A DNA stretch of 18,372 nt from Candidatus Thorarchaeota archaeon. GTDB lineage: Archaea > Asgardarchaeota > Thorarchaeia > Thorarchaeales > Thorarchaeaceae. The notes under the pieces were generated by a model. The model did not search any database. It was not told the origin of the DNA and was given only the letters and a program-made list of their open reading frames with translations. Positions 922 to 18,372 of the stretch are shown here, piece by piece. The position numbers were made by a program, and so were the translations under genes. The DNA lies in NCBI GenBank assembly GCA_048882485.1, contig JBHLRP010000016.1, positions 1 through 18,372 of the forward strand, read 5' to 3'. Each line of letters begins with the position of its first letter. Within the stretch, counting starts at the first letter, position 1.

Positions 922-944
922 TTCTCTAGACAGGCACACACAGC

Positions 945-951: not shown

Positions 952-976
952 TCTGAAATGCGTTAAGCAGACAAAC

Positions 977-984
977 AGGAGAGG
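977..984 (+). promoter_or_regulatory. Shine-Dalgarno site (AGGAGAGG)
   Basis: Lies 5 nt before the ATG at 990. Confidence 0.6.
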
Positions 985-989
985 CATCT

Positions 990-1136: not shown

Positions 1137-1284
1137 GAATTGGTACAAGAACGAGAATTGGAAAGGATGATGTTTCTAGAAAAGGTACCCGCATTTTGAT
1201 AGTGGGACTTATCTGGCATAGATTTTTGTCGTATTTCTGGCAGTATTCTGCTAATAGACTAGTTTGCTGTCATAGGAAATTGGA

Positions 1285-2331
1285 GTGACGGACTTCGTGA
1301 CTGATCCTGGAGGGCCCACACCATTCGATAGGAGTGAAGGAGAAAAGGCCTTTGATGCAGGGAATGTTATAATGAGCTACACCAGAGGGGTCCTGTTGCA
1401 CCAGAGAATGAATTTAGATGATGCAATTAAGCTGCTTGAGAAATCTCTATCGTTGGCGGTCACAGGAGATATGTTTGATTATGCAATAAAAGCGCAGGTT
1501 CAACTTGCATCTGTTCATCTAAAGAGATACCAGATTCATGGTGATGAACGCGACTACAAAGCAGCATACAACTACTCTGAAAATCTAACTCAGATTGCAG
1601 AAGAACAGAATCTGGGGGCGGGGATTGTTGAGGCATTACTCCTTAGAGCAATCCTCAAGAGAACAGCGAAAGATATCATCGGAGCTAAGCATGATCTGCT
1701 TCGAGCAAAAGCCCTAGCGCTCGAAAACGAACTCACCACAGTTGTTAATGTGATTAATCGGGAGATAGATGAAGTACAAGGCCTTGAGAGGACCACCCTT
1801 GATGTCAATAGGAGTTTCGCTGAGACCCCAGATATCGAAGACAGTCTAGAGGAAGTACCAGGAGTCTTTGCTAGGCTAATGGATATGGAGTTGGCAAGAA
1901 AACCAATTGTTGTTCCAGTCAAGATCTATAGACTCGTCGTTATGCAACCAAGAGTTGGACTGCCAGTCTATACTTATGATTTTGACACTGAGATGGAAGA
2001 AGCGAGCTTTCTTGTTTATGGGCTATTATCTGCAGTCACATCTGTTGGTTCGGAGATCTTCCCCGATGCTGGACGCATTCGATCATTAGCTCATGAAGGG
2101 AAGACAGTCATTATGGAGCATGAAGGGGAGTATATGGGAGCCCTAATAGCTGAAAAGGAGAACTTCAGAGCAAGAATTTCACTTAGCAATTTCCTGAAGG
2201 GATTCAATGAAATATACCCATCTGAGAATTGGAATGGTGAAATGTTGAGTGATGAAGCAAAACAGGAAGCGGACTTCCTAATTGCAAAAACCTTCCGAAA
2301 CTTGGCCATAACAACCCAGAAAGGCGAATAG
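1285..2331 (+). CDS. TPR-like helical repeat protein with C-terminal longin-like domain (348 aa)
   Basis: aa ~28-165 form TPR-like helix pairs (YTRGVLL..DDAIKLLEKSLSLA; AQVQLASV..YKAAYNY; EALLLRAIL..GAKHDLLRAKALA). aa ~212-340 (nt ~1918-2304) follow the longin order beta-beta-alpha-beta-beta-beta-alpha-alpha: IYRLVVM..GLPVYTYDF..LVYGLLSAVTSVGSEI..IRSLAHEGKTVIME..YMGALIA..ARISLSNFLKGF..W.G..ADFLI. The GTG start is bounded by an in-frame TAG at 1273-1275. The fold is assigned by pattern recognition only. Confidence 0.75.
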   Translation: MTDFVTDPGGPTPFDRSEGEKAFDAGNVIMSYTRGVLLHQRMNLDDAIKLLEKSLSLAVTGDMFDYAIKAQVQLASVHLKRYQIHGDERDYKAAYNYSENLTQIAEEQNLGAGIVEALLLRAILKRTAKDIIGAKHDLLRAKALALENELTTVVNVINREIDEVQGLERTTLDVNRSFAETPDIEDSLEEVPGVFARLMDMELARKPIVVPVKIYRLVVMQPRVGLPVYTYDFDTEMEEASFLVYGLLSAVTSVGSEIFPDAGRIRSLAHEGKTVIMEHEGEYMGALIAEKENFRARISLSNFLKGFNEIYPSENWNGEMLSDEAKQEADFLIAKTFRNLAITTQKGE

Positions 2332-2332
2332 A

Positions 2333-5300
2333 TCAGCCTCTTGATGAACGAAATTCCATTTCTTTTTCAATCGACTCTAGAACTGTATCGATGCGGTCGA
2401 GTAACATGTCTTTCAACCGCAAACCAGCTGGCTCTGTGGGAGATTCCAACTCAAAAGCCTTAAAGAACATTCGTTTAGCTTGGGTTAATTCATCACTCAA
2501 TATCATTAAGACGTCATCACCCATATAGGAGATTTCCGCTGATAGGTCTCGCAGCCACTCAAGATGATTTACAATCTGTGCTCGCATTGTGCTGGAAATG
2601 CCAACATCCTCAAGTGATAGGAGCTCTTCAGGAGTCAGTGCATGTTCAAGTGTTGTGACTCGCCTTCGAGCTCGTGAAATGAATATAACAGCCGCAAGAC
2701 CTGCTATTCCGGCTGCTGATATGTAAAGCAACTCAGGTGGAAATTGCTGAGTAGTCCATACAACTTTTGGTATCAATCCTCTGTGATCTACCTCGACGAG
2801 TCCAAATCGGTCTCTGAACGACTCAATCATATACTCAACCAAACCAGCACTACTACTTTCGAAGGACACTTCCCATCGTTCATTATCTGGATTGTATATC
2901 GCACGTTTGCCATTTATGTTCACTAGAGTATTAGGATCTGTAATAGGTGCATCATCTGAAGAATAGCGTAGCTGGAAGTATATTGTAACATTGCTACCTA
3001 GGAGGACAGATAGCACTTCAGGTGGTTCTACCTCAACCACTAAATCTTCAGCTATATTTCTGCCTCTTACTCCAGCAGATGAAACATAGACACTATCAAA
3101 TTTCGCCGTACAGAAGATGACATCTTGATTTCTTAGTACTTGAATCTGTGAGGTGTCATCTTCGAATCCGTCCACAAAGTAGTCGAATTCACCAACAGTA
3201 TCATGAGATACTGAGATGAACCAGAATCCGCCCGAGGAGTCGTAGCTAGCTTGAGTCCCGTTTATCCATATTCTTCCTTTCAAGTCAGCAAAGAGCGTTT
3301 TGTCAAATACATAACGCATCCAAAATCTAACACGAATTGATGCTCCCAAATCACATCGTTCAGGATCGGTTTCAGTGTCAAAAATCTCGAGCTCATCCCA
3401 AATTACGTATGTTTGGTCATTGCTAATAACAACGTTGATTCCATGGATTCCACCGGTGATGGAATCTTCGCGAACAGTATATCCTCGTATTCCAATGAAG
3501 GACTGCACATATGTGGTGTCATTCAATTCCATAGTGCCATCAAAGGGAGTGCCATCGAAGGCATATACGGTGGAGTTTTCCACGGTGATTCTCATTCCCA
3601 AGCCTACTCGGTGATAGTTGACTGATAGGTCAACAATAAGACCATCCCAAATGATGCTCACTTCATCATTTGACAGAATGGTATTGATACCATAAGCGAA
3701 ATCAACAACGGACATTACTGTGAATCCATATCTCCCAACTGTATTCTGTACTAGAGACTGATTGAATATCAGGTTTCCATCAAATTGGCTGCCATCAAAG
3801 GCATACACAGCATCAATATCAAGGACTGTGAGTGCTGATTCATAGACATTTATTCTTTCATCGATGACATTCAGAGTAATATTCACTGCATCCCATATCA
3901 TGTATGGTGCGGAAATATCCATTTGGTAGTATGCCGCTCCAGCAACCTCCATATCTGTAACTAGCCAGTGGCGGTAAAGGACAGATAAACTGGAATTCGT
4001 GAAGGTTACCCACCCAGTTTCGTTAATGATATGCGGCGTTGAGTTCACGTATAATAGACCAGTTACTACTGGACTGCTGTTTTCACGCCATATACAATGG
4101 AAGTAAATGTAGACTAATGTCCCTATATTCACCCGATTTACCGGTCCATCTCCATCACTCACAAAAGCATCATCAACTTCGACTACGGGAGCATTAGTCC
4201 AAAATACCTCAATCATAAAAGTGTCGAATTCTGAAATTCCATATAGACTATCTTGGGCAGAAACCACGAGATATTGATATCGAGCATCTGGTGGTCCATT
4301 CCAAGTGTCACTGAAATTGCCATTCTTGGTTTCCGTTCCATTTCTTAATGTTTGAATTGTTAGACTCATAACTCTGCCGCCATCATATTGATAGGTTGCA
4401 GTCACGGTGAAATATACTAATTCATCATAGTATGCTACCGAGGAATCAGATACAATGATGACATTCATTTTGTCCCATATGATGGACATAGGACTCATTT
4501 GCTCGCCTATTTGAGTTAAACCATATAGAAGATCATTAACAGCCGACACTTGGAAGACGTAGCCAACTGGTGTAGAATAAACGAAACTATGATTCCAACG
4601 CAATAGTGCAGGATTCCAAGTCATTGCCGAGCCATTCATGTATAATGTGCCAAACGCACCCTGAAAAACCGAACCATCGTATTCATAGTCTGCTGTCACG
4701 TAGACTTGCCGTGTAGCACCTACATTCGTCCTTCCATCTACTTCATCAATCCAGTATGAGAGAATTCGCAGTCTATCCCAAATAACATAGTCTTCATCAT
4801 TGGTCCCGATTAGTGATATGCCGTAGGAGTCGCTAGAAGCAGAAGCCACGGAGTAGGCCCACCGACCCACAACTCCATGAACATTGACTGTATCATTGAG
4901 AGTCAAAATACCATCGTAAGGTAGGCCATCGTAGGCATAGACAGCACTTGCCTGAATCGAAGCAGACGAACCAACATCAATCCGTCTATCACTGATTGTG
5001 ATCGTTACTATCAACTCATCCCAGATGACGGTTTGAGATTGGGAGTTTTGGTTCACGCTTTGAATGCCATGAATGTTCCCGGAACAGGTCACAGAATCAA
5101 ATATGATACCCATGACCTCTGATTCTGTTCGAGTGTGGCGCCAGAGTCCTAGCCCAAGATGGCTGAAGCCGAATCCGTTGATAGTTACAATACCATCTTC
5201 AACTGGAGTACCATCATATTCGTAGCGCAGGATTGTATCAACCCGGATAGAATCGCCAACATTGTCTCGGGCGTCGTTTGCCGCCAAAGATAGGACAATT

Positions 5301-8300
5301 ATCTGATCCCATATACACCAAGTTTCATCGTTAGAGAGGATAGACATAATTCCATGGACATCATCACCCACTGCGCTCAGAACTGTGTAGCCCTTCTTTG
5401 TAGCAGCAGCTGAAATGAATACAGTATCATTGAGAAGAAGTGTCCCATCATAGATCGAATTGTCATAGTCATACCTTGCGCTGACAATAATTCCGGAGGC
5501 GTTTTGATTCACGTTAATTCTCTGATCTGGTGAATCTGTCATGGATATTCTAAGAGCGTCCCAAATACAGAATGTCGCATCATCAGTGGAAACTGCTGTG
5601 ATACCATGGACTCCACCAGAAATACTCTGGATGCCATACCCCTGCCTCTGAGGTGAGGCATAGGCAAACTGCGTGACATTCAATGAGAGTATGCCATCAA
5701 ATGGCGAGTTGTCATAATCATACACAGCGGTCACAAGGATGCCTGAAGCATTTGTTCCAATGTTGACCCGCTGGTCAAATGGATCGGTAATTATAATGGT
5801 CAGAGAATCCCAGATGCAATAGACCGCATCATTCAGATTGATTAGGGTAATTCCATGAGTATCATCACCAGCTGCGTTTAGAACTGTGTAACCCTTCTTT
5901 AATGCCACATCTGAAACGAATGAGGTGTCGTTTAGATTTAATGTCCCATCATAGCCCGAGTTGTCGAAGTCATATGTTGCTGTAACAACGATGCCAGATG
6001 CATTCTCGAAAATGTTAATTCTGTTGTCTATGGGACTTGCTATACTTATTGTCAAACTATCCCAGATGATACTCTGCGTCTGACTGTTCTGGTCAACCTG
6101 ATTGAGTCCATGTGATCCACCATTGTAGGCTACAGTGTTGTAGATTACTTCTTGTACTGATGACCTGCTAATCGTGATTCGCCATACGCCTCCGCCAACA
6201 TGACTAGCTGGGATGGAATTGATTGTGACTGCTCCATTTATGACAGGACTTGAGTCGGATGCGTAGATGAGAGTCACATCCAGATTGACATTAGCATTGA
6301 CATTGACTCTGGCATCATCTGGCGAATATGATTGAACCACTACTCTATCAGCAATATATGTACCCTGAACGGAAGTGTCGAAAAGATCTTGAGCTCCACT
6401 ACCCAATCCAGCTTCCACAGCTTTGATTGTTATCGTATCCAGGCCTGCTGAATCGTCAGCAAATGCGACCAAGCTGAAACTCCCTGAAACGAGCGTTGTA
6501 TCACTCCAGGGTCCAACACTAGAACCGTATCCTGAGCTCAACACCCAGACATCGGTTTCATTTGACAGAGGATTATCATCTCCCGAACCCAGATAAAGCA
6601 AAGTTCCACTCACAATGAAGCTCCCATCAAAGGGCCCGCGGTTTAACGTGCCAGAACCGTCGGAAATTGTTAGCCCTGAAATATCTAGGCGCGTTTCAAC
6701 ATCCCAATTCACTTCATAGTAGTCTTCGTCCGAATCAATACCGTCTGTGACATATTGCCTGATGTCTATGTCTGTTAAGTCAGAATGGTCCCAGTCTATC
6801 TTGATTATCCATGTCACTACAAGTTGATTGCCAGATCCTGAAGCTGATGACCATGAAGCTAATGCCACATTGCCTGCTCCTTGTTGAATTGAGAAAGAGT
6901 CGGTTGCAATAGTATATCTCAATGTCCATTCAGCTTGAATGCGAAGATCATCATATAGAGAGATTTCAACATATTGAAGCATATCATAGCCATTTCCATC
7001 ACTCACATTCGATGTTATCACATAGAATCTATACATAGCATAGAGATTGTCTGAATCGTCAGCATTTTCTAGCATCGAAAGCCCATCTGTTATGTTCACA
7101 GGAACTTCATTGGGAGCCTCAGACCAGGTGACTTTCTGGGTGGTAGTGATGAATGCGATTATTCCGAAATTGGTTTCAGAGCTGACAGAAGAAGCATTAT
7201 AATAGTAGATGGCATCAGAAGCTATGTTTCTGAAGAGAGACTTGTTGGAATCAGTGAAAGCGTACCAGTGGGTGGCATTGCGAGAGATGACCACCTCGTA
7301 GGTTGTGCAAGTTGCAGAATCATAGTCATATGTAACCGTGAGTGTGAAGTTGGCCTGCTGCCCATTGAATAGCGAAGCGCCATCTACTGCTATCTCAATT
7401 CTGAGTCTGTCCCAAATGCAGAATGTGGAATCAGGAGTCGATATGGCGGTTATGCCATAACCATCATCACCATTTGCGGTCAGGACTTCATAACCACGTT
7501 TGCCCACAGTAACATAGGCAAATTGAGTGTCGTTCAACACAAGAGTTCCATCGTAATTCGACCCATCATAATCATATACTGCACTCACTATTATGCCAGT
7601 CGCATTATCACCCACGTTCACTCGTAGGTCGGGAGGGTCAGTGATGGATATTGTAAGAGAGTCCCAAATGCAGTATGTATCGTCGTTTTGGCGAATTGCT
7701 GTGATTTCAAATGAATCATCGCCTGAGGCAAAGCTCACCGTGTAACCCTGCTTCTGCGCCGAGCCATAGCTGAATAAGGAGTTGTTTAAAACAAGTGTGC
7801 CATCATAAACAGCACCGTCAAAGTCATACCTGGCCGATACGACAATTCCTGATGCATTAGAATTCACGTCAATCCTTTGATCCAGAGGGTCAGTCATTTG
7901 GATGGTCAAGCTATCCCAAATGCAAGATGCTTCATCATTGACTTCGATCACAGTGATACCGTAAGTGTCGTCCCCACTAGCTGAACTCACATTATACCAG
8001 TGTTGTTGCGCTGACGCATAGCTGAATACCGTGTCATTCAGCATCAATGTTCCATCATAGGATGAGCCATCAAACAAGTATGTCGCTGTGGGGACTATAG
8101 ATGCAGTATCTCCAATGTTCAGTCTGTCATCAGCCACCGTGATTGTGATGGAAAGGGCATCCCAGATAATTGAAGGCTCAGCAATAGTCTGGATAGCACT
8201 TATGCCAAACTGTGTATCAGTGATTGTAGTCACTCCGAATGCGTAGCGGACTATGGTTGAGTATGTATGTAGCTGAGTCCAAACAAGATCCCCTGAATCC

Positions 8301-11300
8301 CAGGCCATGGCGGTCCCATTAAGAAACACAGTTCCCATGGCTCCAGTAAACAGGACACTATCATACTGTCGAATTACGATGGCTGTAATTTCCTGTATCG
8401 AGCCTAAATCACACCTGGAATCAGAAACTGAGTAGCTCAGCACACGCAGCTGGTCCCATATTACAGTAGCAATATCGTTTCTGCCAATCACAGTAATCCC
8501 ATAGGTATCTCCGCTTGCGGAATCCACAGTGTAAGACCTAGCACCAACAACTCCTTGTTGGAAGACTGTATCGTTAAGATCCAATGTTCCATCATACGGC
8601 GTACCATCATAGTCGTAAACAGCCGACGCAGAAACAGAAGCAACATCTCCCACATCTATTCTATAATCAATAGCGGAGATGGAGACAGTTAGAGAGTCCC
8701 AAACGCATGACACGATCATATTCTGTCGAATCGCTGTGATGCCGAAAGAATCTCCAAAAGCAGAAGCAACTGTGTAGCCCCGACGTCCAGCTGAAGCTTG
8801 CTGAAAGATAGTATCATTTAGTTGAAGAGTTCCATCATATGCGGAACCATCATAGTCATAGATGGCTGTAGGAACAATAGATGCAATTGTCCCGGTATCG
8901 ATCCTACTATCACTCACTGTAATGGTAATCGTCAGCGAATCCCAAATAATACCTTGACTCTGTGAGTTCTGGTCTACTGCTGTTATGCCATGTTGATTCG
9001 CAGCGGCAGACACTGTGTTGAAAGTTACGAATTGAGCTGTGCTTCGCATTTCAGTAAAGCCCCAAACTCCATTGGATTCAGAATAAATCGCGCTAATGCC
9101 ATTAATCCAAACAGATCCGTCGATGACAAATGAATTGTCAAAGTTGTAGATTAGAGTGACATTGCAGGAACATCCAGTATTGATGTCAATCCTTGTATCC
9201 TCAGCTGAATAGGAAATGACCACTATCTGATCCCAGATTATCGTAGTGTTGGACGTAGTAACAACCCATTGTGTGAGGCCATAGACCAATTCAGAGGCTA
9301 TGATAACATGATATCCTATTCTTTGGACAGATGCAGAGGTTTCCTGATAACGCCACCGAGTAGCCCCAGCATCCCACGCCAGAATCTTGGAGCCATTAAG
9401 TGCAGCAGAAAATCCCTTTGTAATATCTATCTCAACACCATCATATTGGTATCGTGCCTTCCACCAAGTTTCACCTACTGAATTCGTGTCGATTCGCCCA
9501 TCGACAACACCAGATTGGTAGAACTCTATTCGATCCCAGATTATATCCTGGGATTTTGAATTCAAGTTCAGTAGGTTTATGCCATATGTATCCTCATAGG
9601 CATTGGAACTGTTTACGTAATACCGCCACAAACCAACTTCTGATCTAGACGGTTGATATTCAAAGTGGTCAATGCTCCAAATCATCACATTGTTGTCCAT
9701 GTAGAGAATGTCGTCCGCGCCTAGTGGATGATTATCAAACTCAAGCACAGCGGTTACTATTATTTCAGCTGGCGATCCGTAGTCAATGCGGTCATCAGTA
9801 GTAGAAGTGGTCTGAATTAGAATTCTATCCCAGATCACATCCGTCCAAAGGACATTTGGATTCAGAGAAGAAATATCATGCGTAACTTCATTGGCCAGGG
9901 TCGAATTGACATGGAACCTCCAGAGACCGACTGCTATCTTAGAGGTCTGATACTCAAAATGGTCAGTGTTCCAACTCATCAGAGTGTCATCTAGGTAGAG
10001 TGTATCACTCGATGTCAAAATGTGGCCATCAAACTCGAGTTGTGCGGTGACAGAAACCGTAACTGTGGTACCAAGATTCACTCGATTGTCATTCGCTGTG
10101 GTTGTGGTGATCTGAATACGGTCCCATATCTGTGCCACACTAGTTCCTGCTAGATTAACGTATGAGATTCCATAGGTATCTTCGAGGGCATTTGATGCAT
10201 TTACAAAGAATATCCATTCGCCAACTTGAGCAAACTGTGGCTCATACTGGAAGTATGATCCGAGCCATATCATCTGAGTATTATTCATGTAAAGAAGATC
10301 ATCCACGCCGAGGAAGTGGCTATCAAACTCGAGTTGGGCGGTGACTCGAATATCAGCTTGAGTGTCATAGTCTATGCGCCCATCCTGCGTGGTGGTGGTG
10401 AGAACCAGAATTCTGTCCCAAATTTGGTCTACTGATTTGCCATCAATGTTCACCAAGGAAATTCCATATGTCGTTTCCATAGCATTAGAGGTGTTGACAA
10501 AATAATTCCAAGAACCCACTTCATTTCTTAATGGTTGATACTGGAAATAACTTGAAACCCATGTCATTTCGACATCATCCATGTACAGGATGTCACCGGA
10601 CGCAAGTGGATGATCATCATACTCCAATAGAGCAGTTACTTGGATATCTGCCGCAGAACCGTAGTCAATTCTATTGTCCTGAGTTGAAGTTGTGATTATT
10701 CTGATGCGGTCCCAAATGACGCTGGTAGCTTGGCTGTTGAGATTCACCAATGTTATGTCATGTGTTGATTCCAATGCGCCAGTGGAATTCGCAAAGTAGG
10801 TTAGAATATCCACAATCAAGTATGCTCCAGTTGCAAGTTCGAAGTGATCAACATTCCAAGCCATTAGTGTGTCATTGGCATAGAGAGCGTCTGCTGAACC
10901 AAGCAGATGACCATCATATTCAAGTTCAGCAGTCACGCTGATTGTGGTCGAGGTTCCATAATTGATTCGATCGTCAGCTGTTGTTGTGGTGAGGATTCTG
11001 ATTCTGTCCCATATGACACTAGATTCCCTACCATTCAGGCTCAACTCTGTGATGCCATAGGCACTCATTGTACTGGAGTTCACATAGTATGTCCATAAAC
11101 CAACAGCAGATTGCGATACATCAAGCTCAAACCAGGAGTTTCCACCATCCCACGACATAGCTTGACCCGCTAAAACGACGGTGTCGCTAGAGCCAAGGAG
11201 AGTGTTATCATACTCAAGCATGAGAGTGACTCGGATTTGGACAAGATCATCAACATTGACTCTTTCATCATCAGCCACTGTCGATTGCACTAAAATCCTA

Positions 11301-14300
11301 TCCCAAATGACATCCTGGAAGTTACCATTCTGGTTGACGGAAGATATTCCATAGTCCGATTCCATCGCATTTGTGAGATTGGCAAAGTATCTCCAGGAAC
11401 CTACGCCTGCTTTTGTCCTTGGCAACTCGAACCTCAGTTCCACCACGTCCCAGGTCATCTGGACTCCATCCATGAAGATTGTATCCGAGGAACCCAGCAA
11501 ATGGCCGTCATATTCCAACTGAGCTGTGATCCTCAATTCTGCTATAGAATTGATATTCACTCTGCTATCATTGACAGTAGTTGATGTGATCAAGATTCGG
11601 TCCCAGATTATTGATGTGTCGAATGTAGTCTGAGTCCAAGCCGTCAGCTCATAGGATGTTTCCAACGCGGAAAGAATAGCATATTGCTGGAGCTCGACTC
11701 CTGCCTTTGATTCAGAGTATATCCAGTAAGTACCATTCCAGACCAGAAGTTTGGAGCCTGTGAGCTGCGCTGTCAATCCTGACGTGATTGACACGTCATC
11801 ATAGTCATAGCGCGCTGTCCAATAGGTGGTTCCGGTGGATCCAGCATCAATTCGTCCATCATCTACTCCTGACAAGTAGAACTCAATACGATCTGAGATG
11901 AATGTGCCTGTAGCTGATGCGGTATAGTATAAGTCCGCTCCTGAAGGGCCATCTCCTTCAGCCACCACCTTGAAAGCGTAAGTGTTTACCCGAACCGAGG
12001 ATGACGACCCAATACCTGTTGCTGCTAGCACTCCAAGACCATCCACATTTCCTGACCAAGAACCAGAGATGTCGTGCAAGACCCAAAAGTCCGTTTCATT
12101 TGCCAAGGGGAAGAGTGCTGAAGAATAATAAGTCAAAGCTCCTGTAGCCACTAGGTCAGCGGTATCTACGTTCCCACGATCATCATCTAGACTTGGCAAG
12201 GTTGAATAATCCAAACGAGTTTCTATATCCCAATCAGATTCATACCAATCACTTGCCGTAGAAAATGTATTACTAACGAATTGCTTGGTATCAACATCTA
12301 CAATGTCAGGATGATTCCATGAGATTTTGATATACCATGTGATGTTCAGCCATATGCCAGACTGCTCATAGGTGCAAGGTCCCAAAGCAATGTACATTGA
12401 CCCATTCGTGACAGAGAATGAGGAATTACTTCTGACGAATGTGACAGTCCAGTAGTTAGTTCCTCTGTCATCACTAAAGAGAAGGAGGCGTATGAGTCGG
12501 ATATCTTGATAGCCGTTCTGATCCGAAGCATTTGAAGTGATTTTATAGTAGCGTAGTCGTGCATACATGTTGTCAGTATCATCGGGATTGAGCAGGTTTG
12601 GTGGGGCTTCATTGACGGGAACTATTGGAATATATGATGTCCAATTGACGAGCTCAGTGTTTGTGATGAACAGAGTGATGTCATACAAGGTTTCCGAAAC
12701 AACCAAGGATGCATTGTATAGGTAGACCAAATCACTATTCGTGTCATTGAATAGCGTCGCATTCAGATATGTGAATGCCAACCAGTCAGTGTTATTCCTT
12801 GCACAGATTATCTCGTACGTGGTGCATTCTGTTCCATCAGACTCAAAGCTGACACTGAGTGTAAAATTGACCTGCTGTTCGCTTAGAACCAGCTCGGCAT
12901 CTGCCTGGATGTCAATCAACAGTCGATCCCAAATGACATCCAAGATGTTCGAATCCAGGTTTACAACAGAAATGCCGAAGTCAGTTTCGTTGGCATTGGT
13001 TGAGTTCACGAAGTATTTCCGCAGACCCACGGAAGATTGGGAAGTGCTATGAACGAAGGCGCTTTGAGGTGCACTCCAGACCATGGATAAATCCTCCATA
13101 TAGAGAGTATCTCCAGAACCAAGAAAGTGGTCTCCATTTCCAGTATACTCCAGTTTCGCAGTGACCTGTAGTTCAACTGTATCTCCGACATTGACTCGAG
13201 AATCATCAGCTGCTATCGAGAGGATGAGTATCCTGTCCCAAATGACTTCAACGCTCAATGAATTCAGATCAACTTCACTTATCTCATAGGTAGTTTCAAG
13301 GCTGGAATTGACAAAGAAGGTCCATTTTCCAACTGTTGTGAACGCCAAGTCGAGGATGAAATGACTATTCCCTCCATCCCACGTCATAGCTGAATCGTTG
13401 ACGAATACAGAGTCCCCACTACCAAGATTTGTGTGGTCAAACTCGAGCCATAATGTTACTTGGATCTGGGCAGTCGAACCTACATCTAGGTGGTTGATGT
13501 CAACGTTGGTAGTTTGGACGGTTATTTTGTCCCAGATGATGCTAGTATTGGCTGCTGTCTGAATGAATCGTGTAAGACCGTATGTCGACTCGGAAGCACT
13601 CAATACTCCATATCCCATTGATTGGACTGTGGAAAATGATTCAGAGTAGTCCCACCTAGTAGTGACACCATTCCAAGAAAGCGCCTTGCTACCATTCAGT
13701 GACGCGCTGAGTCCGGTGGTGATCTCAAACTGGTCGTAGGCGTACCTTGCTCTCCACCATGTAGTACCGACCGCATCGATATTGATTCTGCCGTCTTCAA
13801 CACCGGATGAAAAGAACTCAATCTCATCCCATATAATCGATACATTGGAAGCTGTTTGAACCCATGCTGTTAGACCATAGGTTGTTTCAGAGGCAGAAGC
13901 AATCCCATACCCTACAAGTTGCACAGAGTTTTTTGTTTCAGAGTAGTCCCAACGAAGGTCAGAAGAGTTCCAATTGAGTGCTTTAGAGCCATTCATTGAT
14001 GCAGTAAGAATGGCTCCTGTTATCTCAATTCTATCATATTCATACCTTGCGTTCCAGTAGACGAAGTCACTATCATCTACATCAACCCGGCCATCAACTA
14101 CCCCGCTCTGATAGAACTCTATCCTGTCCCAAATCTGGCTAACACTATTGCCGTCGAGGAATAGAGCCGAAATCCCATAGGTTGCCTCATCCGCATTTGA
14201 GGAGTTGACATAGAAATCCCAAATTCCAACCATAAAGAATTGAGGCTGAAGTCGGAAGTACGAGCCAGCCCAAGTCATCACGGTGTCGTTCATGTATAAG

Positions 14301-17300
14301 ATATCAGCAACACCTAGAGGATGGCCATCGAATTGCAATTCCGCTGTAACTCGCAAGTCCGCCGACGACCCGAAGTCAATTCTGCCATCTTGCGTTGTAG
14401 TTGTAACAATCACAATTCGATCCCATATTTGATCGACTTCCGCACCCGCAACATTGACCACCGTTATCTGAAATGTATCTTCCAAAGCTCCAGTAGAATT
14501 CACATAGAACTTCCACTCGCCCACCTGAGAGAACTGAGGTTGCAGTCGGAAATATGGGCCCACCCATGTGAGCCCTGTAGTGTTCATGAAAAGATTATCA
14601 CCCAATCCAAGTGGATGGCCATCATACTCTAGCTCAGCTGTGACTCTCAGATCTGCAGCTGCATTAGTATCGATTCGTGAGTCTTGAGAGGTAGTACTCG
14701 TTATGAGAATGCGGTCCCAAATCACATTCGCTGAAATTGGGTTGGATTGCACGAGGGTTATTCCAGAATCTGTTTCCAGAGCCCCGGATGCATTCACATA
14801 GTACCTGAGTAACCCAACTATAGAGTAGGAGCCAGTTTCGAGGTAGAAGTGATCCGTATCCCATGTCATCACAGTATCATTCATTCGCAATGCGTCGCCA
14901 CTGCCCAAGAAGGTGCCATCATACTCGAGTTGAGCTGTGACATTAACTGTGGTGCTTGTACCATAGTCGATTCGACCGTCAGAAGCCACTGTGGTGATAA
15001 TCAGAATACGGTCCCAGATTTGGTCTATCTGCCGCCCGTCAATATTGACCACAGCAATATCGTAAGTATTCTCCATTGCTCCAGTTTCATTGACAAAGAA
15101 TGTCCACAGCCCTACCTGCGTGAACAGAGGCTGAAGCCTGAAGTAAGGACCAACCCAAGTCATAGCCGTGCCGTTCATGTAGAGAGTATCTCCCACGCCA
15201 AGGAGATGGCCGTCGTATTCCAACTCTGCAGTCATCCTAATGTCTGCAGTTGTCCCATAGTCAATTCTTCCATCCTGCGTGGTGGTTGTGATAATCCGTA
15301 TGCGATCCCAAATGATTGTTGTATTGCTTGCTGTCTGCACCCAGCCAGCGAGTCCGTGTGTAGCGTCGTAGGCTGAGGCTACTGAATATCCAATCGCCTG
15401 AACCGTACTCATAGTTTCTTGAAATGTCCAATATGAGCCATTCCACGAAAGAGTCTTAGTGCCATTTAGCGCCGCGCTCAGTCCGCCAGTTATTGAGAGA
15501 GAGTCGTACTGATATCTGACACTCCACCAAGTGACACCACTCGAGTCGACGTCAATTCTGGAATCGTCTACTCCAGACTGATAGAATTCGATTCTATCAG
15601 CGATATATGTGTCAGCAATGCTCGAGAAAAGAAGATCAGTACCCCCAAATCCTGCACCCTCCTGAACAACCTTGACTGTGTAAGTGTCTTGGCCAACTTC
15701 ATCATCTGCGTAGCAGGTAACATTGAAGAGCCCTGAAACAAGAGATGAATCAGGCCAAGGCCCTAAACTGGTTCCATACTCAGGGCAAGAAACCCACACA
15801 TCCACTTCCGACGATGGGGGAGTGATAGCTGAACCATGGTATGTAACAGTGCCAGTGGTGAAGAACTGACTATCGAGATCCCCTCTATCTATCGTGCCTA
15901 AATTATCATCAGTGGCTATGCCCGCTATGTCCAGCCGAGTTTCTATGTCCCAGTCGACTTCATACCAGTTCGTGTCATTCTCTGATTTACTATCAACGAC
16001 GACACACTCAACATCACTTCCTGTGATATCTGGATGGATCCATTCAATTGAGACTTGGAATGTAATATCAATATCATTCCCCGCTTTCATGGCAGTTGAA
16101 GAAACAGTATCAAGAGTGATGTAGTTTGCTGGATCGGAGAACTCAGCAAAGCTATCAGTGTCCTCATTATACTCGATTGTCCAGTAGAGTGTGAATCTGT
16201 CGTCTGAGTATAGAGAGAGCCGCATGCTTTGGATGTCACCATACCCGTCTTGGTCAGAAACATTTGCAGCTATTAGATAGTCCCTGGCCTTGGCATACAT
16301 GTGGCTACCATCATCAATGTTGCCTACCGAGGGCTTTTGATCGTTCGATGGAATATTGTTCCAAGTGTGAAGAAGAGTTGCATCAATGGACCATTGTGAT
16401 GACACCGCATCGCCTGCTTCCAGCCCGCCCTTGAACCTGATGGTGAATGTTGCAGACGTTAGCCAGGTTTCCACGCTTATGTTGTTCCATGAGTCTGCCT
16501 GCAAGTCAGCGAAAAGACTGACCCAGGTAAGCCCATCCCAGACTTCAACTGCTATGTCTTCTGAATCGGCATTCCCTGCATAGATGCAAAGAAACTCATT
16601 ATTATTATCAAATTCAGCTGCAGTCCATTGAACCTCCAAGTCTAGTTCATAGTTGTAGGTTTGATCTGTCCATGTATGAAGAGTAATGAGATCTATCTCC
16701 CAAAGTCCTTGCTCTGCATCACTTGTGTTATCTGCACCCTGGAGCCTGACGGTGTAGCTGACTGAATCAAGGCCTGTGGCGGTAAGATTGGTCCAGCCGA
16801 TCGAGGTAATCGTTCCCAAGCTGAGCCAGCCGACTCCATTCCAATAGCTGACATTAAGACCCTCAGTCCCAGAAATCGATCCAATGTTGATACAGACTTC
16901 CTCATTGACTTCATCATTGTCTGCTCCACTCCAGGCGTATTCGAGATCAGCCTCATAATTGACGACTTTTGGAGAGCTAACGCCAATCCGTAGATGATCA
17001 ACGTAGGCATAGTCTGCGCCACCTGTCTTATAGAATACCAGCCTAATGCGAAGCGAATTGACTTGTTGTTGAGAGAGAGTGCCTACTATCGTCAGGTTGT
17101 CGTATTGCCTGGCTGTATGCTGCGCGACTCTGCCCAGCAAAGTGCCGACTCCTCCGGTGGTATCATAATAGACATCAAATCCATCATCCGCCGCACCATC
17201 CAGATTCCAACAGTACAATGACACATTTACAGTGAGGGCTCCCGACAATGTCGTATTAGGAAGTCCCCACCAGCCTCCTTGAGATCCCGGAGCCTTTGTA

Positions 17301-17845
17301 TAGATGTAGTTTGCTGGCTCGTCTTGTGAACTAAGGTAGGGAGAAGTACCAACTGTTGTGATTCCGCTATATGTGGCATCGTAGGAGTCTGTATCAAGCC
17401 AGACTGACTGATAGGGATCCCCGACATCTGTTTCTTGAATAGTCATGAACTGGGTGTCAACAGTGGTTCCTTGTGCATTCGCAGGATTCATTTCGACCCC
17501 CACATCTGGTGAAGAGTCAACATCGCTCGCATAACTATCATAGTCATCCTCAGCATCCGTAGTAATCGGTGCTGTATTCTCTTCAGCAAGAATGTCATAG
17601 GTAGCATCAGGTCCAGATTGTTGATTAGCAAAATTCGAGTGACTTCCTATGTATCCAGCACCATCGACATCTGACAGATTATTGGCTGCGAATTGTTCGA
17701 GCGATGATGCAAGAGTGTATTCTGTCTGGGTCACTATCAAACTTGGCTCATACGTTGGAGGGTATGAAGGATTAGTACTAGTGCCCAGCAGCATAGCCAC
17801 TATACAACCTGTGAGGACAATGACTAAGGGTCCTCTCCTCTTCAT
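2333..17845 (-). CDS. Giant (5170 aa) single-pass cell-surface glycoprotein / adhesin-like protein with tandem Ig-like IWD repeats and a cytoplasmic domain
   Basis: Uninterrupted 15.5-kb ORF with a strong SD, an N-terminal basic + hydrophobic signal, about 40 beta-rich repeats, many N-x-S/T sequons, a C-terminal TM helix followed by RARRR, and a 114-aa tail. Confidence 0.95.
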   Translation of the reverse strand: MKRRGPLVIVLTGCIVAMLLGTSTNPSYPPTYEPSLIVTQTEYTLASSLEQFAANNLSDVDGAGYIGSHSNFANQQSGPDATYDILAEENTAPITTDAEDDYDSYASDVDSSPDVGVEMNPANAQGTTVDTQFMTIQETDVGDPYQSVWLDTDSYDATYSGITTVGTSPYLSSQDEPANYIYTKAPGSQGGWWGLPNTTLSGALTVNVSLYCWNLDGAADDGFDVYYDTTGGVGTLLGRVAQHTARQYDNLTIVGTLSQQQVNSLRIRLVFYKTGGADYAYVDHLRIGVSSPKVVNYEADLEYAWSGADNDEVNEEVCINIGSISGTEGLNVSYWNGVGWLSLGTITSIGWTNLTATGLDSVSYTVRLQGADNTSDAEQGLWEIDLITLHTWTDQTYNYELDLEVQWTAAEFDNNNEFLCIYAGNADSEDIAVEVWDGLTWVSLFADLQADSWNNISVETWLTSATFTIRFKGGLEAGDAVSSQWSIDATLLHTWNNIPSNDQKPSVGNIDDGSHMYAKARDYLIAANVSDQDGYGDIQSMRLSLYSDDRFTLYWTIEYNEDTDSFAEFSDPANYITLDTVSSTAMKAGNDIDITFQVSIEWIHPDITGSDVECVVVDSKSENDTNWYEVDWDIETRLDIAGIATDDNLGTIDRGDLDSQFFTTGTVTYHGSAITPPSSEVDVWVSCPEYGTSLGPWPDSSLVSGLFNVTCYADDEVGQDTYTVKVVQEGAGFGGTDLLFSSIADTYIADRIEFYQSGVDDSRIDVDSSGVTWWSVRYQYDSLSITGGLSAALNGTKTLSWNGSYWTFQETMSTVQAIGYSVASAYDATHGLAGWVQTASNTTIIWDRIRIITTTTQDGRIDYGTTADIRMTAELEYDGHLLGVGDTLYMNGTAMTWVGPYFRLQPLFTQVGLWTFFVNETGAMENTYDIAVVNIDGRQIDQIWDRILIITTVASDGRIDYGTSTTVNVTAQLEYDGTFLGSGDALRMNDTVMTWDTDHFYLETGSYSIVGLLRYYVNASGALETDSGITLVQSNPISANVIWDRILITSTTSQDSRIDTNAAADLRVTAELEYDGHPLGLGDNLFMNTTGLTWVGPYFRLQPQFSQVGEWKFYVNSTGALEDTFQITVVNVAGAEVDQIWDRIVIVTTTTQDGRIDFGSSADLRVTAELQFDGHPLGVADILYMNDTVMTWAGSYFRLQPQFFMVGIWDFYVNSSNADEATYGISALFLDGNSVSQIWDRIEFYQSGVVDGRVDVDDSDFVYWNARYEYDRIEITGAILTASMNGSKALNWNSSDLRWDYSETKNSVQLVGYGIASASETTYGLTAWVQTASNVSIIWDEIEFFSSGVEDGRINIDAVGTTWWRARYAYDQFEITTGLSASLNGSKALSWNGVTTRWDYSESFSTVQSMGYGVLSASESTYGLTRFIQTAANTSIIWDKITVQTTNVDINHLDVGSTAQIQVTLWLEFDHTNLGSGDSVFVNDSAMTWDGGNSHFILDLAFTTVGKWTFFVNSSLETTYEISEVDLNSLSVEVIWDRILILSIAADDSRVNVGDTVELQVTAKLEYTGNGDHFLGSGDTLYMEDLSMVWSAPQSAFVHSTSQSSVGLRKYFVNSTNANETDFGISVVNLDSNILDVIWDRLLIDIQADAELVLSEQQVNFTLSVSFESDGTECTTYEIICARNNTDWLAFTYLNATLFNDTNSDLVYLYNASLVVSETLYDITLFITNTELVNWTSYIPIVPVNEAPPNLLNPDDTDNMYARLRYYKITSNASDQNGYQDIRLIRLLLFSDDRGTNYWTVTFVRSNSSFSVTNGSMYIALGPCTYEQSGIWLNITWYIKISWNHPDIVDVDTKQFVSNTFSTASDWYESDWDIETRLDYSTLPSLDDDRGNVDTADLVATGALTYYSSALFPLANETDFWVLHDISGSWSGNVDGLGVLAATGIGSSSSVRVNTYAFKVVAEGDGPSGADLYYTASATGTFISDRIEFYLSGVDDGRIDAGSTGTTYWTARYDYDDVSITSGLTAQLTGSKLLVWNGTYWIYSESKAGVELQQYAILSALETSYELTAWTQTTFDTSIIWDRILITSTTVNDSRVNINSIAELRITAQLEYDGHLLGSSDTIFMDGVQMTWDVVELRFELPRTKAGVGSWRYFANLTNAMESDYGISSVNQNGNFQDVIWDRILVQSTVADDERVNVDDLVQIRVTLMLEYDNTLLGSSDTVVLAGQAMSWDGGNSWFELDVSQSAVGLWTYYVNSSTMSAYGITELSLNGRESSVIWDRIRILTTTTADDRINYGTSTTISVTAELEYDGHLLGSADALYANDTLMAWNVDHFELATGAYLIVDILTYFANSTGALESTHDITLVNLNSQATSVIWDRIRIITTSTQDNRIDYGSAADIQVTALLEYDDHPLASGDILYMDDVEMTWVSSYFQYQPLRNEVGSWNYFVNTSNAMETTYGISLVNIDGKSVDQIWDRILVLTTTTQDGRIDYDTQADIRVTAQLEFDSHFLGVDDLLYMNNTQMIWLGSYFQYEPQFAQVGEWIFFVNASNALEDTYGISYVNLAGTSVAQIWDRIQITTTTANDNRVNLGTTVTVSVTAQLEFDGHILTSSDTLYLDDTLMSWNTDHFEYQTSKIAVGLWRFHVNSTLANEVTHDISSLNPNVLWTDVIWDRILIQTTSTTDDRIDYGSPAEIIVTAVLEFDNHPLGADDILYMDNNVMIWSIDHFEYQPSRSEVGLWRYYVNSSNAYEDTYGINLLNLNSKSQDIIWDRIEFYQSGVVDGRIDTNSVGETWWKARYQYDGVEIDITKGFSAALNGSKILAWDAGATRWRYQETSASVQRIGYHVIIASELVYGLTQWVVTTSNTTIIWDQIVVISYSAEDTRIDINTGCSCNVTLIYNFDNSFVIDGSVWINGISAIYSESNGVWGFTEMRSTAQFVTFNTVSAAANQHGITAVDQNSQSQGIIWDSLTITITVSDSRIDTGTIASIVPTAIYDYDGSAYDGTLQLNDTIFQQASAGRRGYTVASAFGDSFGITAIRQNMIVSCVWDSLTVSISAIDYRIDVGDVASVSASAVYDYDGTPYDGTLDLNDTVFQQGVVGARSYTVDSASGDTYGITVIGRNDIATVIWDQLRVLSYSVSDSRCDLGSIQEITAIVIRQYDSVLFTGAMGTVFLNGTAMAWDSGDLVWTQLHTYSTIVRYAFGVTTITDTQFGISAIQTIAEPSIIWDALSITITVADDRLNIGDTASIVPTATYLFDGSSYDGTLMLNDTVFSYASAQQHWYNVSSASGDDTYGITVIEVNDEASCIWDSLTIQMTDPLDQRIDVNSNASGIVVSARYDFDGAVYDGTLVLNNSLFSYGSAQKQGYTVSFASGDDSFEITAIRQNDDTYCIWDSLTISITDPPDLRVNVGDNATGIIVSAVYDYDGSNYDGTLVLNDTQFAYVTVGKRGYEVLTANGDDGYGITAISTPDSTFCIWDRLRIEIAVDGASLFNGQQANFTLTVTYDYDSATCTTYEVVISRNATHWYAFTDSNKSLFRNIASDAIYYYNASSVSSETNFGIIAFITTTQKVTWSEAPNEVPVNITDGLSMLENADDSDNLYAMYRFYVITSNVSDGNGYDMLQYVEISLYDDLRIQAEWTLRYTIATDSFSIQQGAGNVALASWSSASGSGNQLVVTWIIKIDWDHSDLTDIDIRQYVTDGIDSDEDYYEVNWDVETRLDISGLTISDGSGTLNRGPFDGSFIVSGTLLYLGSGDDNPLSNETDVWVLSSGYGSSVGPWSDTTLVSGSFSLVAFADDSAGLDTITIKAVEAGLGSGAQDLFDTSVQGTYIADRVVVQSYSPDDARVNVNANVNLDVTLIYASDSSPVINGAVTINSIPASHVGGGVWRITISRSSVQEVIYNTVAYNGGSHGLNQVDQNSQTQSIIWDSLTISIASPIDNRINIFENASGIVVTATYDFDNSGYDGTLNLNDTSFVSDVALKKGYTVLNAAGDDTHGITLINLNDAVYCIWDSLTIIITDPFDQRVNIGTNASGILVTAVYDYDNSPFDGILSLNVTQFAYASPQRQGYGIQSISGGVHGITAVSTDDATFCIWDALRISMTDSPDQRINVNQNASGIIVSARYDYDNSIYDGTLLLNDTVFISAAATKKGYTVLSAVGDDVHGIMSILSNDETWCIWDQIIVLSLAANDARDNVGDSIRVDTILRYEYDGTPVEDGIVTINGFGFSHLGLGLWRHTRTESEVMGIIFDSVTCSGNIHGIQSVNQNSQSQTVIWDELIVTITISDRRIDVGSSASIQASAVYAYDGLPYDGILTLNDTVNVHGVVGRWAYSVASASSDSYGISLIGTNDEDYVIWDRLRILSYWIDEVDGRTNVGATRQVYVTADYEYDGSVFQGAFGTLYMNGSAMTWNPALLRWNHSFVYSTPVGYVFQVSAVNDLLYGLTQIGEQMSPMSIIWDKMNVIIVSDSSVAYYDELVYFTVTATYQYDGGRVMSLTIQTLRNGTETKNGNFSDTWNGPPDARYQYLVVSAQDSLYGISEFDTFMIEVFWTNAPVVEVDDAFVSDGDGPVNRVNIGTLVYIYFHCIWRENSSPVVTGLLYVNSTPHIINETGWVTFTNSSLSVLYRHWLVTDMEVAGAAYYQMDISAPYMIWDAVNITLNVIDERINVYESALTVLDIDAVYAFDGSQFDGNLIFNQSLVQNTVGRYGFTVMSVVDFAYGINTILSNDEVSIIWDGLIVDLSVNYHRVGLGMRITVENSTVYAFDGTPFDGTMELNDTTYVQSFIGIRGYTVREDSITGGIHGINVVISNDQTYVIWDELEIFDTETDPERCDLGASIRVRFWMRYVFDKTLFADLKGRIWINGTQASYDSSGGFWFISVSHDTVGEFDYFVDGFEDDTSQIQVLRNQDVIFCTAKFDSVYVSSAGVRGRNIAEDLVVEVEPPEVLSVLLGSNVTIYFQLRYSSDDAPITDPNTLVNINGKRAIYNPDNERWEVSFESSSAGLVEYMIESFRDRFGLVEVDHRGLIPKVVWTTQQFPPELLYISAAGIAGLAAVIFISRARRRVTTLEHALTPEELLSLEDVGISSTMRAQIVNHLEWLRDLSAEISYMGDDVLMILSDELTQAKRMFFKAFELESPTEPAGLRLKDMLLDRIDTVLESIEKEMEFRSSRG
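2678..2731 (-). other. C-terminal transmembrane helix of the giant protein
   Basis: LLYISAAGIAGLAAVIFI followed by the positive-inside cluster SRARRR. Confidence 0.9.
2735..7102 (-). repeat. Super-block 3: node domains A3 (7102-6692) and B3 (6691-6347), 7 IWD repeats, cap (4471-4187), then 5 membrane-proximal repeats
   Basis: Third copy of the node (ADDSDNLYAMYRFYVITSNVSDGNGYD...VNWDVETRLD), followed mainly by short SLTI...YDYDG..YDGTL.LNDT repeats. Confidence 0.85.
7103..12619 (-). repeat. Super-block 2: node domains A2 (12619-12218) and B2 (12217-11891), 16 [I/V]WD repeats, cap repeat (7408-7103)
   Basis: Node A2/B2 is homologous to A1/B1 (DD...MYA..R.Y.I..N.SD..GY.D......L..DDR ... W.H.D....D ... 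YE.DWDIETRLD). Confidence 0.85.
12620..16351 (-). repeat. Super-block 1: node domains A1 (16351-15938) and B1 (15937-15596), 9 IWD repeats, cap repeat (12925-12620)
   Basis: Protein-level repeats with consensus IWD-RI.I.TT..D.RI(D/N).G....VTA.LE(Y/F)DGH.LG..D.L.MN...M.W. Confidence 0.85.
16361..17701 (-). other. N-terminal head (aa 49-495): three beta-sandwich/jelly-roll-like domains, two of them homologous
   Basis: Duplicated segments SDVD..G....AN.Q...D......E (aa 49-91 and 98-141) and NYE.DLE..W....D..NE..CI..G...E...V..W.G..W......W.N......T.R..G.....D.....W.ID...LHTW (aa 296-392 and 398-495) flank a unique domain (aa 146-290). Confidence 0.65.
17780..17845 (-). other. Signal peptide or N-terminal membrane anchor of the giant protein
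   Basis: MKRRG n-region followed by hydrophobic PLVIVLTGCIVAMLLG. Confidence 0.8.
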
Positions 17846-17850
17846 ACTCT

Positions 17851-17858
17851 ACCTCCTC
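17851..17858 (-). promoter_or_regulatory. Shine-Dalgarno site GAGGAGGT of the giant gene
   Basis: Minus strand reads GAGGAGGT-agagt-ATG (5-nt spacing). Confidence 0.85.
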
Positions 17859-18058
17859 TATCAGCCGCTTCAATCTTGCTGTCGGGACCTTCGAAGCCTT
17901 GATTGAAACTCACTTGTATTGCGAATTGCAGGGCTCACTGGACTGGGTTGGATCGACCTGCATCAATTATGGGATTTCCTACCCACACTACGGTCTTCAC
18001 GTTTGCATATTTGTCTTACTTCATTGGTTTCTAAATTGAAAAAACGGAAGCGTGGACT

Positions 18059-18093
18059 AAAAAGAGAAAGGAAGAGGGGCACTACACCCCTCT
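18059..18093 (-). terminator. Hairpin plus pyrimidine/U-tract terminator after the right-edge gene
   Basis: On the minus strand, 6 nt after the TAG: AGAGGGG-tgtagtg-CCCCTCT, then TCCTTTCTCTTTTT. A further T6 tract lies at 18039-18044. Confidence 0.7.
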
Positions 18094-18099
18094 CATCAT

Positions 18100-18372
18100 C
18101 TATTGATCCTCGTCATCTTCTCCGAATCGCTTCGGCCTGCCGAGACGTCGGGAGTCGTCTACTCTAAGCCTATCAGGATCAGGCGGTGCACCATATCGTT
18201 CCTCTTTAGGCTCTTTAATCTCTTCAACGACCTCCCTATCGAGGTCTTCTTCGCGAAATTCTTTGCCTTCTTCTCGCTCCTCTTTCACACGCTCAGCAAC
18301 ACGCTCAGCTCTCTCGAACATGACATAGTAGAGCGTTGTGAAGATTGCTACCAGCGGGAAGGCCAGCAGCTT
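18100..18372 (-). CDS. 3' end of a membrane protein (TM helix plus highly charged C-terminal tail); starts beyond the right edge
   Basis: The frame is open to the window edge: KLLAFPLVAIFTTLYYVMFERAERVAERVKEEREEGKEF...GEDDEDQ*. The ORF-track start at 18321 is an internal Met. Confidence 0.8.
   Translation of the reverse strand, partial: KLLAFPLVAIFTTLYYVMFERAERVAERVKEEREEGKEFREEDLDREVVEEIKEPKEERYGAPPDPDRLRVDDSRRLGRPKRFGEDDEDQ

Follow-up and report, generated by a model that had tools for sequence, protein, structure and literature searches.

A split domain apparently nested within its own paralog at the N-terminal end of a giant Thorarchaeota surface protein

Introduction

In the cyanobacterial RNA polymerase β′ subunit, the insertion Si3 consists of homologous SBHM β-domains recursively inserted into one another to form an elongated body, and its copies are either continuous or assembled from distant stretches of the chain (PMC10895346). 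A survey of domain insertions lists Si3 as a six-level recursive insertion (PMC13114784). Here we describe a module of similar layout in a Candidatus Thorarchaeota archaeon (assembly GCA_048882485.1, contig JBHLRP010000016.1, positions 1 to 18,372 of the forward strand). The whole 18,372-nt stretch analyzed is called the window, and the module lies at the N-terminal end of a giant protein encoded by a single open reading frame (ORF) at 2333-17845 on the minus strand, which comprises 5170 amino acids (aa) and a stop codon. An earlier sequence-only reading had placed the module at 16361-17701, which is aa 49-495 of this protein, and had proposed that one domain is inserted into a loop of its own paralog, with a third domain inserted into the inner copy. 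With a probability of roughly 80%, we consider aa 48-496 to be three domains nested in one another. Here ‘n’ and ‘c’ refer to the putative N-terminal and C-terminal halves of the outer split domain, n′ and c′ to those of the inner one, and X to the innermost insert.

The likeness to Si3 is that small homologous β-domains sit within one another, as is proposed for the window module. However, Si3 as described belongs to the trigger loop of a cytoplasmic enzyme and to another protein and fold family, whereas the module is found on extracellular archaeal proteins. The module also has a host family of its own, a nesting depth varying from 1 to 6 among relatives, and an exchangeable innermost insert. 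Similarity to SBHM was not seen with Pfam, which gave no family at E ≤ 1 on aa 1-615; nine families were listed for 26 aligned members of the family, and none is an SBHM.

Another likeness is to the RTX adhesins FrhA of Vibrio cholerae and MpIBP of Marinomonas, in which a ligand-binding domain interrupts a β-sandwich, called a ‘split domain’, near its N-terminal end and is projected by it. In FrhA, the split domain consists of residues 1127-1138 and 1334-1439, and the peptide-binding domain occupies 1139-1333 (PMC12970687). The parts are of similar size, with a short N piece, a C piece of ~100 aa and an insert of ~150-200 aa, and the carrier is a giant protein. On the other hand, the RTX split domain has one level without self-nesting, belongs to bacterial RTX proteins of the type 1 secretion system (T1SS), and has an N piece of 12 aa, compared with 45 here. 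The window protein has a C-terminal membrane span where RTX adhesins have their secretion signal. A PDB profile search returned no adhesin chain at E ≤ 10 and no chain of any kind at E < 0.05, and neither RTX nor any other Pfam family was found in the 5170 aa apart from two sub-threshold matches.

In the ECOD/AlphaFold survey, most insertions are single-level, deeper nesting is a minority, and 65.8% of events join unrelated families (PMC13114784). Its generic arrangement A1-B1-C-B2-A2 has the same topology as n-n′-X-c′-c, but in the present case the first insert is a paralog of its host, and one family serves as both host and insert. Nesting of a domain in its own paralog over several levels is rare, and Si3 is the one clear precedent that we found in print. 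The window module appears to share its architecture with Si3 and the RTX split domains, has no detectable sequence relation to them, and is not a member of either group.

Results

Two homologous segment pairs flank a single domain

An alignment of 26 rows, referred to as A1, was used to build profile hidden Markov models (HMMs), with 45 columns for n and 100 for c, which were iterated once. The profile envelopes in the window protein are 48-92 for n, 97-142 for n′, 295-393 for c′ and 397-496 for c, leaving 143-294 for X. They bear out the order n, n′, X, c′, c given by the sequence-only reading. The linkers between envelopes are very short, with 4 residues from n to n′ and 3 residues from c′ to c.

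The two C-segments are homologous, as had been claimed. BLASTP aligns c′ (aa 296-392) with c (aa 398-495) at 38% identity over 99 columns (E 4e-20), and their Smith-Waterman score of 186, compared with 32 ± 6 for shuffled sequences, was reached by 0 of 2000 shuffles. The homology claimed for the two N-segments needed more than a pairwise comparison. For n (49-91) and n′ (98-141), BLASTP gave no alignment at E ≤ 100, and the Smith-Waterman score of 38 (shuffles 21.6 ± 4.2) was reached by 10 of 2000 shuffles, making the pairwise likeness marginal. An independent profile was made of 414 n segments of other proteins, excluding the window protein and its relatives at 70% or more. It matches n with 62.8 bits (E 1.4e-21) and n′ with 47.0 bits (E 1.2e-16), and X, c′ and c with 0.6 bits at most. 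Because both segments match one profile built without the window protein, n and n′ are homologous through the family.

The module occurs once in the genome of the window, and X is not repeated elsewhere there. X is thus single, as proposed, although its length by envelopes is 152 aa instead of ~145 aa. At the sequence level, the host is in two pieces flanking the insert, and the insert is homologous to the host, as in a self-nested insertion.

n and c mostly occur in equal numbers and nested order

Relatives, labeled with P-numbers such as P0004 and P0020, were gathered by similarity to the module. An exhaustive HMMER search gave 741 cluster representatives at E ≤ 0.001, including 249 at ≤ 1e-30. 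From the 741, 150 entered the analysis, and two word-indexed searches supplied 158 more proteins. Each protein was written as a string, with n as "(" and c as ")".

The strings are balanced and properly nested in 220 of 309 family proteins. The maximum depth in the first 106 balanced proteins is 1 (23 proteins), 2 (67), 3 (10), 4 (3), 5 (2) or 6 (1), and the string counts among them are 57 for "(())", 22 for "()", 9 for "(()())" and 8 for "((()))". Balanced strings can also be branched, as in "(()())", "((())())" and "((((()()))))". At the deepest level, P0004 and P0158 each have six n, one insert of ~135-142 aa and six c. When simple untruncated proteins with a copies of n followed by b copies of c were compared, a equaled b in 117 of 138, up to a = 6. 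Shuffling b among these proteins 10000 times gave a = b in 54 on average and in 72 at maximum.

The sequence-only reading had called for homologs with n directly followed by c, or with other inserts in between, and both kinds exist. Contiguous n-c units are found in P0059 (565-709, with a 2-aa linker) and P0098 (542-680, with an 8-aa linker), and the slot of other relatives holds an F5/8 type C domain or DUF2341 with Laminin_G_3. Inserts also occur between two c's of different levels, e.g. "(((X)) 745 aa )". In the family, the median linker length is 4 aa from one n to the next and 2 aa from one c to the next.

One-to-one numbers of n and c, together with the matched types described below, would also suit identical molecules that pair with each other. 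In this case, c would lack strands that the n of a neighboring molecule supplies by donor-strand exchange or domain swapping, and the stoichiometry would serve polymerization or dimerization. Many short family members have archaeal pilin-type N-termini, and the abstract of one paper reports archaeal filaments built by donor-strand complementation (PMC12518558). Nevertheless, complementation in trans is improbable, because the contiguous n-c units with linkers of 2-8 aa can fold only in cis, strands could hardly be exchanged across inter-level linkers of only 2-4 aa, and nested branching and mirror order of types are needed by a hairpin in cis but not by pairing in trans.

A different possibility is that the parts are beads on a string, with n and n′ as a tandem small repeat, independent or disordered and acidic, c′ and c as complete β-sandwiches of ~100 aa, and X as an ordinary domain between them. 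The faint pairwise likeness of n and n′ would fit such an array, as would the size of c, which is that of a whole immunoglobulin-like domain, and the c arrays without detected n in 29 of the 309 proteins. However, independent arrays would not keep a equal to b in 117 of 138 proteins up to six copies, nor would they yield branched balanced strings like "(()())". The c-only proteins do not help either: among 22 of them in the first 235 proteins, none has a signal-like start, 11 do not start with Met, and several begin inside X-like sequence, so that they look like truncated gene calls. Independent beads are already disfavored, and we give them very little credence, also considering the types and couplings below.

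Types of n and c match and are mirror-ordered

Each n was typed as o or i, and each c as O or I, by closeness to the outer or inner copy of the window with a 3-point identity margin, leaving out the window protein and seven close relatives. Typed single-level units are o/O in 23 cases, i/I in 16 cases and mixed in none, so 39 of 39 match, and five more are untyped on one side. The first count of types, made on 22 units, was 14, 7, 1 marginal and 0.

Among the two-level proteins of mixed type, 11 have the order o-i-I-O and one has i-o-O-I, while the parallel orders o-i-O-I and i-o-I-O were not observed, making the mirror order 12 vs 0. Two other two-level proteins read o-i-O-O. When the partners are counted across all multi-unit proteins, nested pairing gives 35 i-I, 17 i-O, 5 o-I and 181 o-O, whereas parallel pairing gives 20 i-I, 29 i-O, 20 o-I and 168 o-O. 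Because the relatives are not independent, these type counts overstate the number of events. Independent beads would produce neither the 39 matches nor the mirror order. Matched and mirror-ordered types thus indicate that n and c evolve together as the halves of a single unit, which has at least two types.

In these terms, the window protein reads as an o/O unit wrapped round an i/I unit. Window-type X is hosted by both n types, and therefore the n type follows c, not the insert. When n and c were clustered by average linkage, the clusters mostly split off outliers, and the members of one small n cluster all (9 of 9) went with a single c cluster, n being the first and c the last in the protein.

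Residue couplings link nested partners

Pseudo-likelihood couplings were calculated for 437 nested n+c units, a low depth with an effective number of sequences (Meff) of 333. Mean-field direct-coupling analysis was discarded in favor of them, as it was dominated by gap and edge columns. With nested pairing, 23 n-c pairs are in the top 100, including ranks 11, 18 and 25 of 9045. With parallel pairing of the same proteins, only one is in the top 100. The sum of the ten strongest n-c couplings is 3.04 for nested and 1.59 for parallel pairing. The subset of o/O units only (55 proteins, 134 units, Meff 111), which is part of the full set, has the same top pairs and a top-10 sum of 2.76, compared with 2.15 for parallel pairing.

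Reproducibility was examined with disjoint halves of the multi-unit proteins. With nested pairing, the n-c maps of the halves correlate with r = 0.21 and share 9 of the top 40 pairs (~0.4 by chance), while parallel pairing gives r = 0.07 and no shared pairs. Couplings reproduced only between nested partners are not what independent beads would give. The shared pairs are n3-c95, n8-c10, n14-c72, n21-c41, n22-c7, n29-c11, n37-c7, n44-c2 and n44-c4. In n3-c95, the beginning of n is coupled to the end of c, and n5-c93 is also high on the same antiparallel diagonal. In n44-c2 and n44-c4, the last part of n is coupled to the beginning of c, and interior n positions couple to the first strand region and the middle of c. 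In residue numbers of the window protein, these couplings would bring 69 and 84 close to 403, 91 close to 398/400, and 50/52 close to 491/489 in the outer unit, and 118 and 134 close to 301, and 141 close to 296/298 in the inner unit. Such a pattern is as expected for a domain that would be closed by its two termini and carry the insert in the opposite hairpin.

Crossed pairing of n with c′ and n′ with c, or an n that wraps X as an arm instead of completing c, is very improbable: linkers of 4 and 3 residues make both wirings sterically conceivable in a two-level module, and a mirror-tree test favored the parallel order in some "(()())" proteins, but the 11 and 1 mirror-ordered proteins vs 0 parallel ones, the i-I/i-O counts of 35/17 nested vs 20/29 parallel, and the couplings (23 vs 1 in the top 100, 9 vs 0 reproducible) disagree with crossing, and n does not follow X, since the same X type is found with both n types and the same n type with many insert types.

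The nested order of brackets, the co-varying and mirror-ordered types, and the couplings specific to nested partners thus support the core of the sequence-only reading, namely that a split domain sits in its own paralog and that the inner copy in turn houses a third domain. We regard the homology of the parts, the one-to-one nested order, the co-variation of n and c types, the nested-specific couplings and the variable apex as established for the sequences compared.

Several points weigh against the nested arrangement. Strings are not balanced in 89 of the 309 proteins, which comprise 58 unbalanced, 29 c-only and 2 n-only proteins. Among 42 unbalanced n-carriers in the first 235 proteins, 14 hold a c-like domain in the X slot after 41-56 aa, and relaxed n thresholds rescue only 4 of the 42. 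Gathering relatives by module similarity enriches for proteins with both n and c, although this alone makes neither equal numbers nor nesting. The strongest couplings (n22, n37 and c7) are at positions that also mark the two types, and those at the insertion junction may instead have arisen as adaptations to the insert. In addition, c alone with its ~100 aa is long enough for a complete β-sandwich, the polar, acidic n could be flexible, and the packing of n onto c is deduced from sequence comparison, not from a 3D model.

The within-protein mirror-tree test is another such point, being null overall (46 proteins, Fisher p = 0.45). Only deep nests ranked high. The ranks of nine proteins with at least four units were 204/720, 2/24, 18/24, 3/24, 4/720, 14/24, 2/24, 1/120 and 44/720, a post-hoc subset that is not used as support. 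Three-unit proteins, with three distances each, scatter from best to worst. Several "(()())" proteins (e.g. P0031, P0168, P0182, P0187, P0191 and P0196) rank last under nested pairing with r near −1, which may be noise with three distances per protein.

A proposed tower with an exchangeable apex

We conceive the host as a domain of roughly 145 residues that is split at one fixed insertion point into n, with ~45 aa, and c, with ~100 aa. The o/O copy (48-92 + 397-496) would hold the i/I copy (97-142 + 295-393), which would in turn hold X (143-294). The chain would run outward via n and n′, form X, and return via c′ and c. With such a path, X would be the physical apex, and the start of n would adjoin the end of c at the base.

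Each n+c pair would fold into one globular β-domain with the termini at the base and the insertion point at the other end. Because the ends would meet at the base and the one insertion point would be on top, copies could be stacked inside one another, and stacking would give a double-stranded tower with its height set by nesting depth. As the inter-level linkers are very short, each joint would be a double strand, and the stack may well be a rigid tower. Its base would be the start of the stalk. The part from aa 501 to 5170 (2333-16345, minus strand) consists of repeats, about 4700 residues in all, and ends in a membrane span and a tail.

Because the membrane anchor is C-terminal, the N-terminal module would be at the far end of the molecule, which agrees with the ‘distal tip’ of the sequence-only reading. 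Incidentally, the start of the window protein shares its general shape with the pilin-type starts of short relatives, and could be either a Sec signal that is cleaved off or a helix that stays in place as in pilins. If this helix is retained, the picture of a distal tip needs rethinking.

The innermost inserts are 125-175 aa in 150 cases and 200-225 aa in 48 cases, reaching up to 889 aa. Among the 149 that measure 135-175 aa, 63 belong to the window-type X. Pfam identified some of the others. P0020, with four n, has an F5/8 type C domain at 305-411 in its innermost slot (292-427), P0158 has one at 1090-1193 inside its six-level nest (slot 1072-1213), and P0226 has DUF2341 and Laminin_G_3 inside its one slot (151-649). 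Families of the F5/8 type C and Laminin_G_3 / DUF2341 kinds usually bind ligands or glycans. No Pfam match was found inside the inserts of P0008, P0014, P0031, P0037, P0136, P0218, P0224 and P0228 (P0008 has one outside), and P0219 has sub-threshold families only, outside the nest.

The tower would display an exchangeable binding domain for adhesion, as suggested by F5/8 type C and LamG domains in the slot of relatives. By the same analogy, we favor ligand or glycan binding by the window X in contact with a cell or substrate. The lectin-like tip of the sequence-only reading is plausible only through these relatives. X itself has no match in Pfam, NCBIfam or PDB, being neither F5/8 type C nor Laminin_G_3 / DUF2341. 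The resemblance to carbohydrate-binding jelly rolls that had been read from Trp-rich strands was not supported, with no Pfam and no NCBIfam family. The best match of the PDB profile search with A1 is a fucose lectin at E 0.069, which is not significant. Fucose-binding lectins of ~90 aa (4i6s and relatives) align with c over 57 columns at A1 positions 374-430 (window aa ~418-474), with E values of 0.069-0.69.

As for the origin of X, its last ~85 residues align with c by hhalign over 80 collinear columns (P 6e-4, probability 29%). Control alignments consisted of one reversed sequence (P 0.0057) and 12 block-shuffled ones (best P 0.019), and X beats all 13. On the other hand, single window-type X sequences scored no better than reversed ones with the c profile, except P0145, and a profile comparison of X with n showed no similarity. 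X may be an n+c domain that has diverged and carries no insert, as n and c together have about 145 aa and X has 152 aa, but this is a lead only.

In the ESM Atlas model of P0007, the region of X (~124-274) is nearest to unnamed tailed-phage proteins of ~174-199 aa, with TM-scores of 0.63-0.72 by the shorter partner. The neighbors are all unnamed, and the feature scores of up to 0.78 are within chance according to the tool. A link of the apex domain to phage proteins is thus possible on the basis of this model.

A family of Asgard and Bathyarchaeota proteins

The module was found in 14 of 24 related genomes of the same taxonomic family and in 0 of 16 elsewhere in the phylum, where absence means not found with this query. 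A scan with the single protein gave four loci, and the closest relatives are on metagenome-assembled genome (MAG) records of Hermodarchaeota, Promethearchaeota and Thorarchaeota. Source names in the protein searches include Thorarchaeota, Sifarchaeia, Hodarchaeota, Promethearchaeota and Bathyarchaeota, and nearly all proteins are named ‘hypothetical protein’. The window module has no sequence counterpart in Pfam, NCBIfam (run on the first 615 aa) or PDB. Among the nine families that Pfam lists for the 26 aligned members, CBM_6 matches one member at E 0.079. Our literature searches, with supplements outside their reach, found no paper describing the family or the nested module on archaeal surface proteins.

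Some relatives have precomputed domains outside this family, which are subtilase (PF00082) in P0213, PKD (PF00801 and PF18911) in P0200, P0201 and P0211, and CARDB (PF07705) in P0207-P0209. The split-domain scaffold therefore combines with enzymes and adhesin-type repeats. Other relatives are short (~570-710 aa; P0243-P0253, P0260-P0268 and P0284-P0307) and have an archaeal pilin-type (class III-like) start of basic residues, Gly and a long hydrophobic stretch, which is visible in about 30. Several of them end exactly at the nested module. Pilin_N matches P0020 with 24.4 bits, compared with a cut-off of 25.2, and PF07790 is precomputed on P0274, P0297 and P0300. In aa 1-615 of the window protein, Pfam gave no match.

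Two relatives carry unusual labels. P0241 (462 aa), 73% identical to the module, is named ‘Asp23/Gls24 family envelope stress response protein’ by one source. This name looks like a mis-annotation, because the protein has only a signal peptide and the nested module, and no precomputed Pfam domain. P0280 (406 aa), which has one level and an insert of 212 aa, is labeled as coming from a Gammaproteobacteria MAG; either the binning is wrong or the family has a rare member in bacteria.

Whether all this amounts to a dedicated self-nesting display scaffold is, in our judgment, an even bet. It would be a hitherto undescribed family of domains on surface and pilin-like proteins from Asgard archaea and Bathyarchaeota, nested over 1-6 levels, also in branched form, with adjustable height. 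Swapping of its apex heads (discoidin, LamG, X and others) would be a modular means of varying the specificity of cell contact in archaea that lack a wall and are related to the ancestor of eukaryotes.

Self-nesting defines a whole family here, amounting to 741 cluster representatives, on extracellular proteins of Asgard archaea and Bathyarchaeota. With depths from 1 to 6, branched and unbranched forms and many inserts, the family offers a natural series for studying how discontinuous domains fold and how an insertion site is retained. The apex domains mark the part of the giant proteins that is most likely to touch the outside world, providing concrete candidates for contact.

Other features of the window

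The features are listed in Table 1 with their positions in the window.

Table 1. Coordinates of the giant ORF, its module parts and its neighbors
Feature	Window positions	Strand	Protein positions	Remarks
Whole ORF	2333-17845	−	5170 aa	Giant surface protein with the module at its N-terminal end
Putative signal peptide	17774-17845	−	hydrophobic stretch aa 7-24	Basic start and 18-residue hydrophobic stretch, read directly from the sequence
n, putative N-terminal part of outer split domain	17570-17704	−	aa 48-92	o type; N-segment profile 55.4 bits, independent profile 62.8 bits
n′, putative N-terminal part of inner split domain	17420-17557	−	aa 97-142	i type; N-segment profile 44.4 bits, independent profile 47.0 bits
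X, putative innermost inserted domain	16964-17419	−	aa 143-294	152 aa between the profile envelopes of n′ and c′
c′, putative C-terminal part of inner split domain	16667-16963	−	aa 295-393	I type; C-segment profile 99.0 bits
c, putative C-terminal part of outer split domain	16358-16657	−	aa 397-496	O type; C-segment profile 126.2 bits
C-terminal hydrophobic membrane span	2675-2731	−	about aa 5039-5057	Sequence read directly; four basic residues follow
Cytoplasmic tail	2336-2674	−	about aa 5058-5170 (~113 aa)	No Pfam match above threshold in the last 555 aa, one below it
Downstream neighbor, GNAT acetyltransferase	436-921	+		Acetyltransf_1, E 4e-14
Downstream neighbor, 348-aa ORF	1285-2331	+	348 aa	Sub-threshold TPR matches only

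Apart from one sub-threshold match to DUF5073, Pfam gave no family at E ≤ 0.01 on aa 501-5170. The 5170-aa protein contains 94 N-x-S/T sequons.

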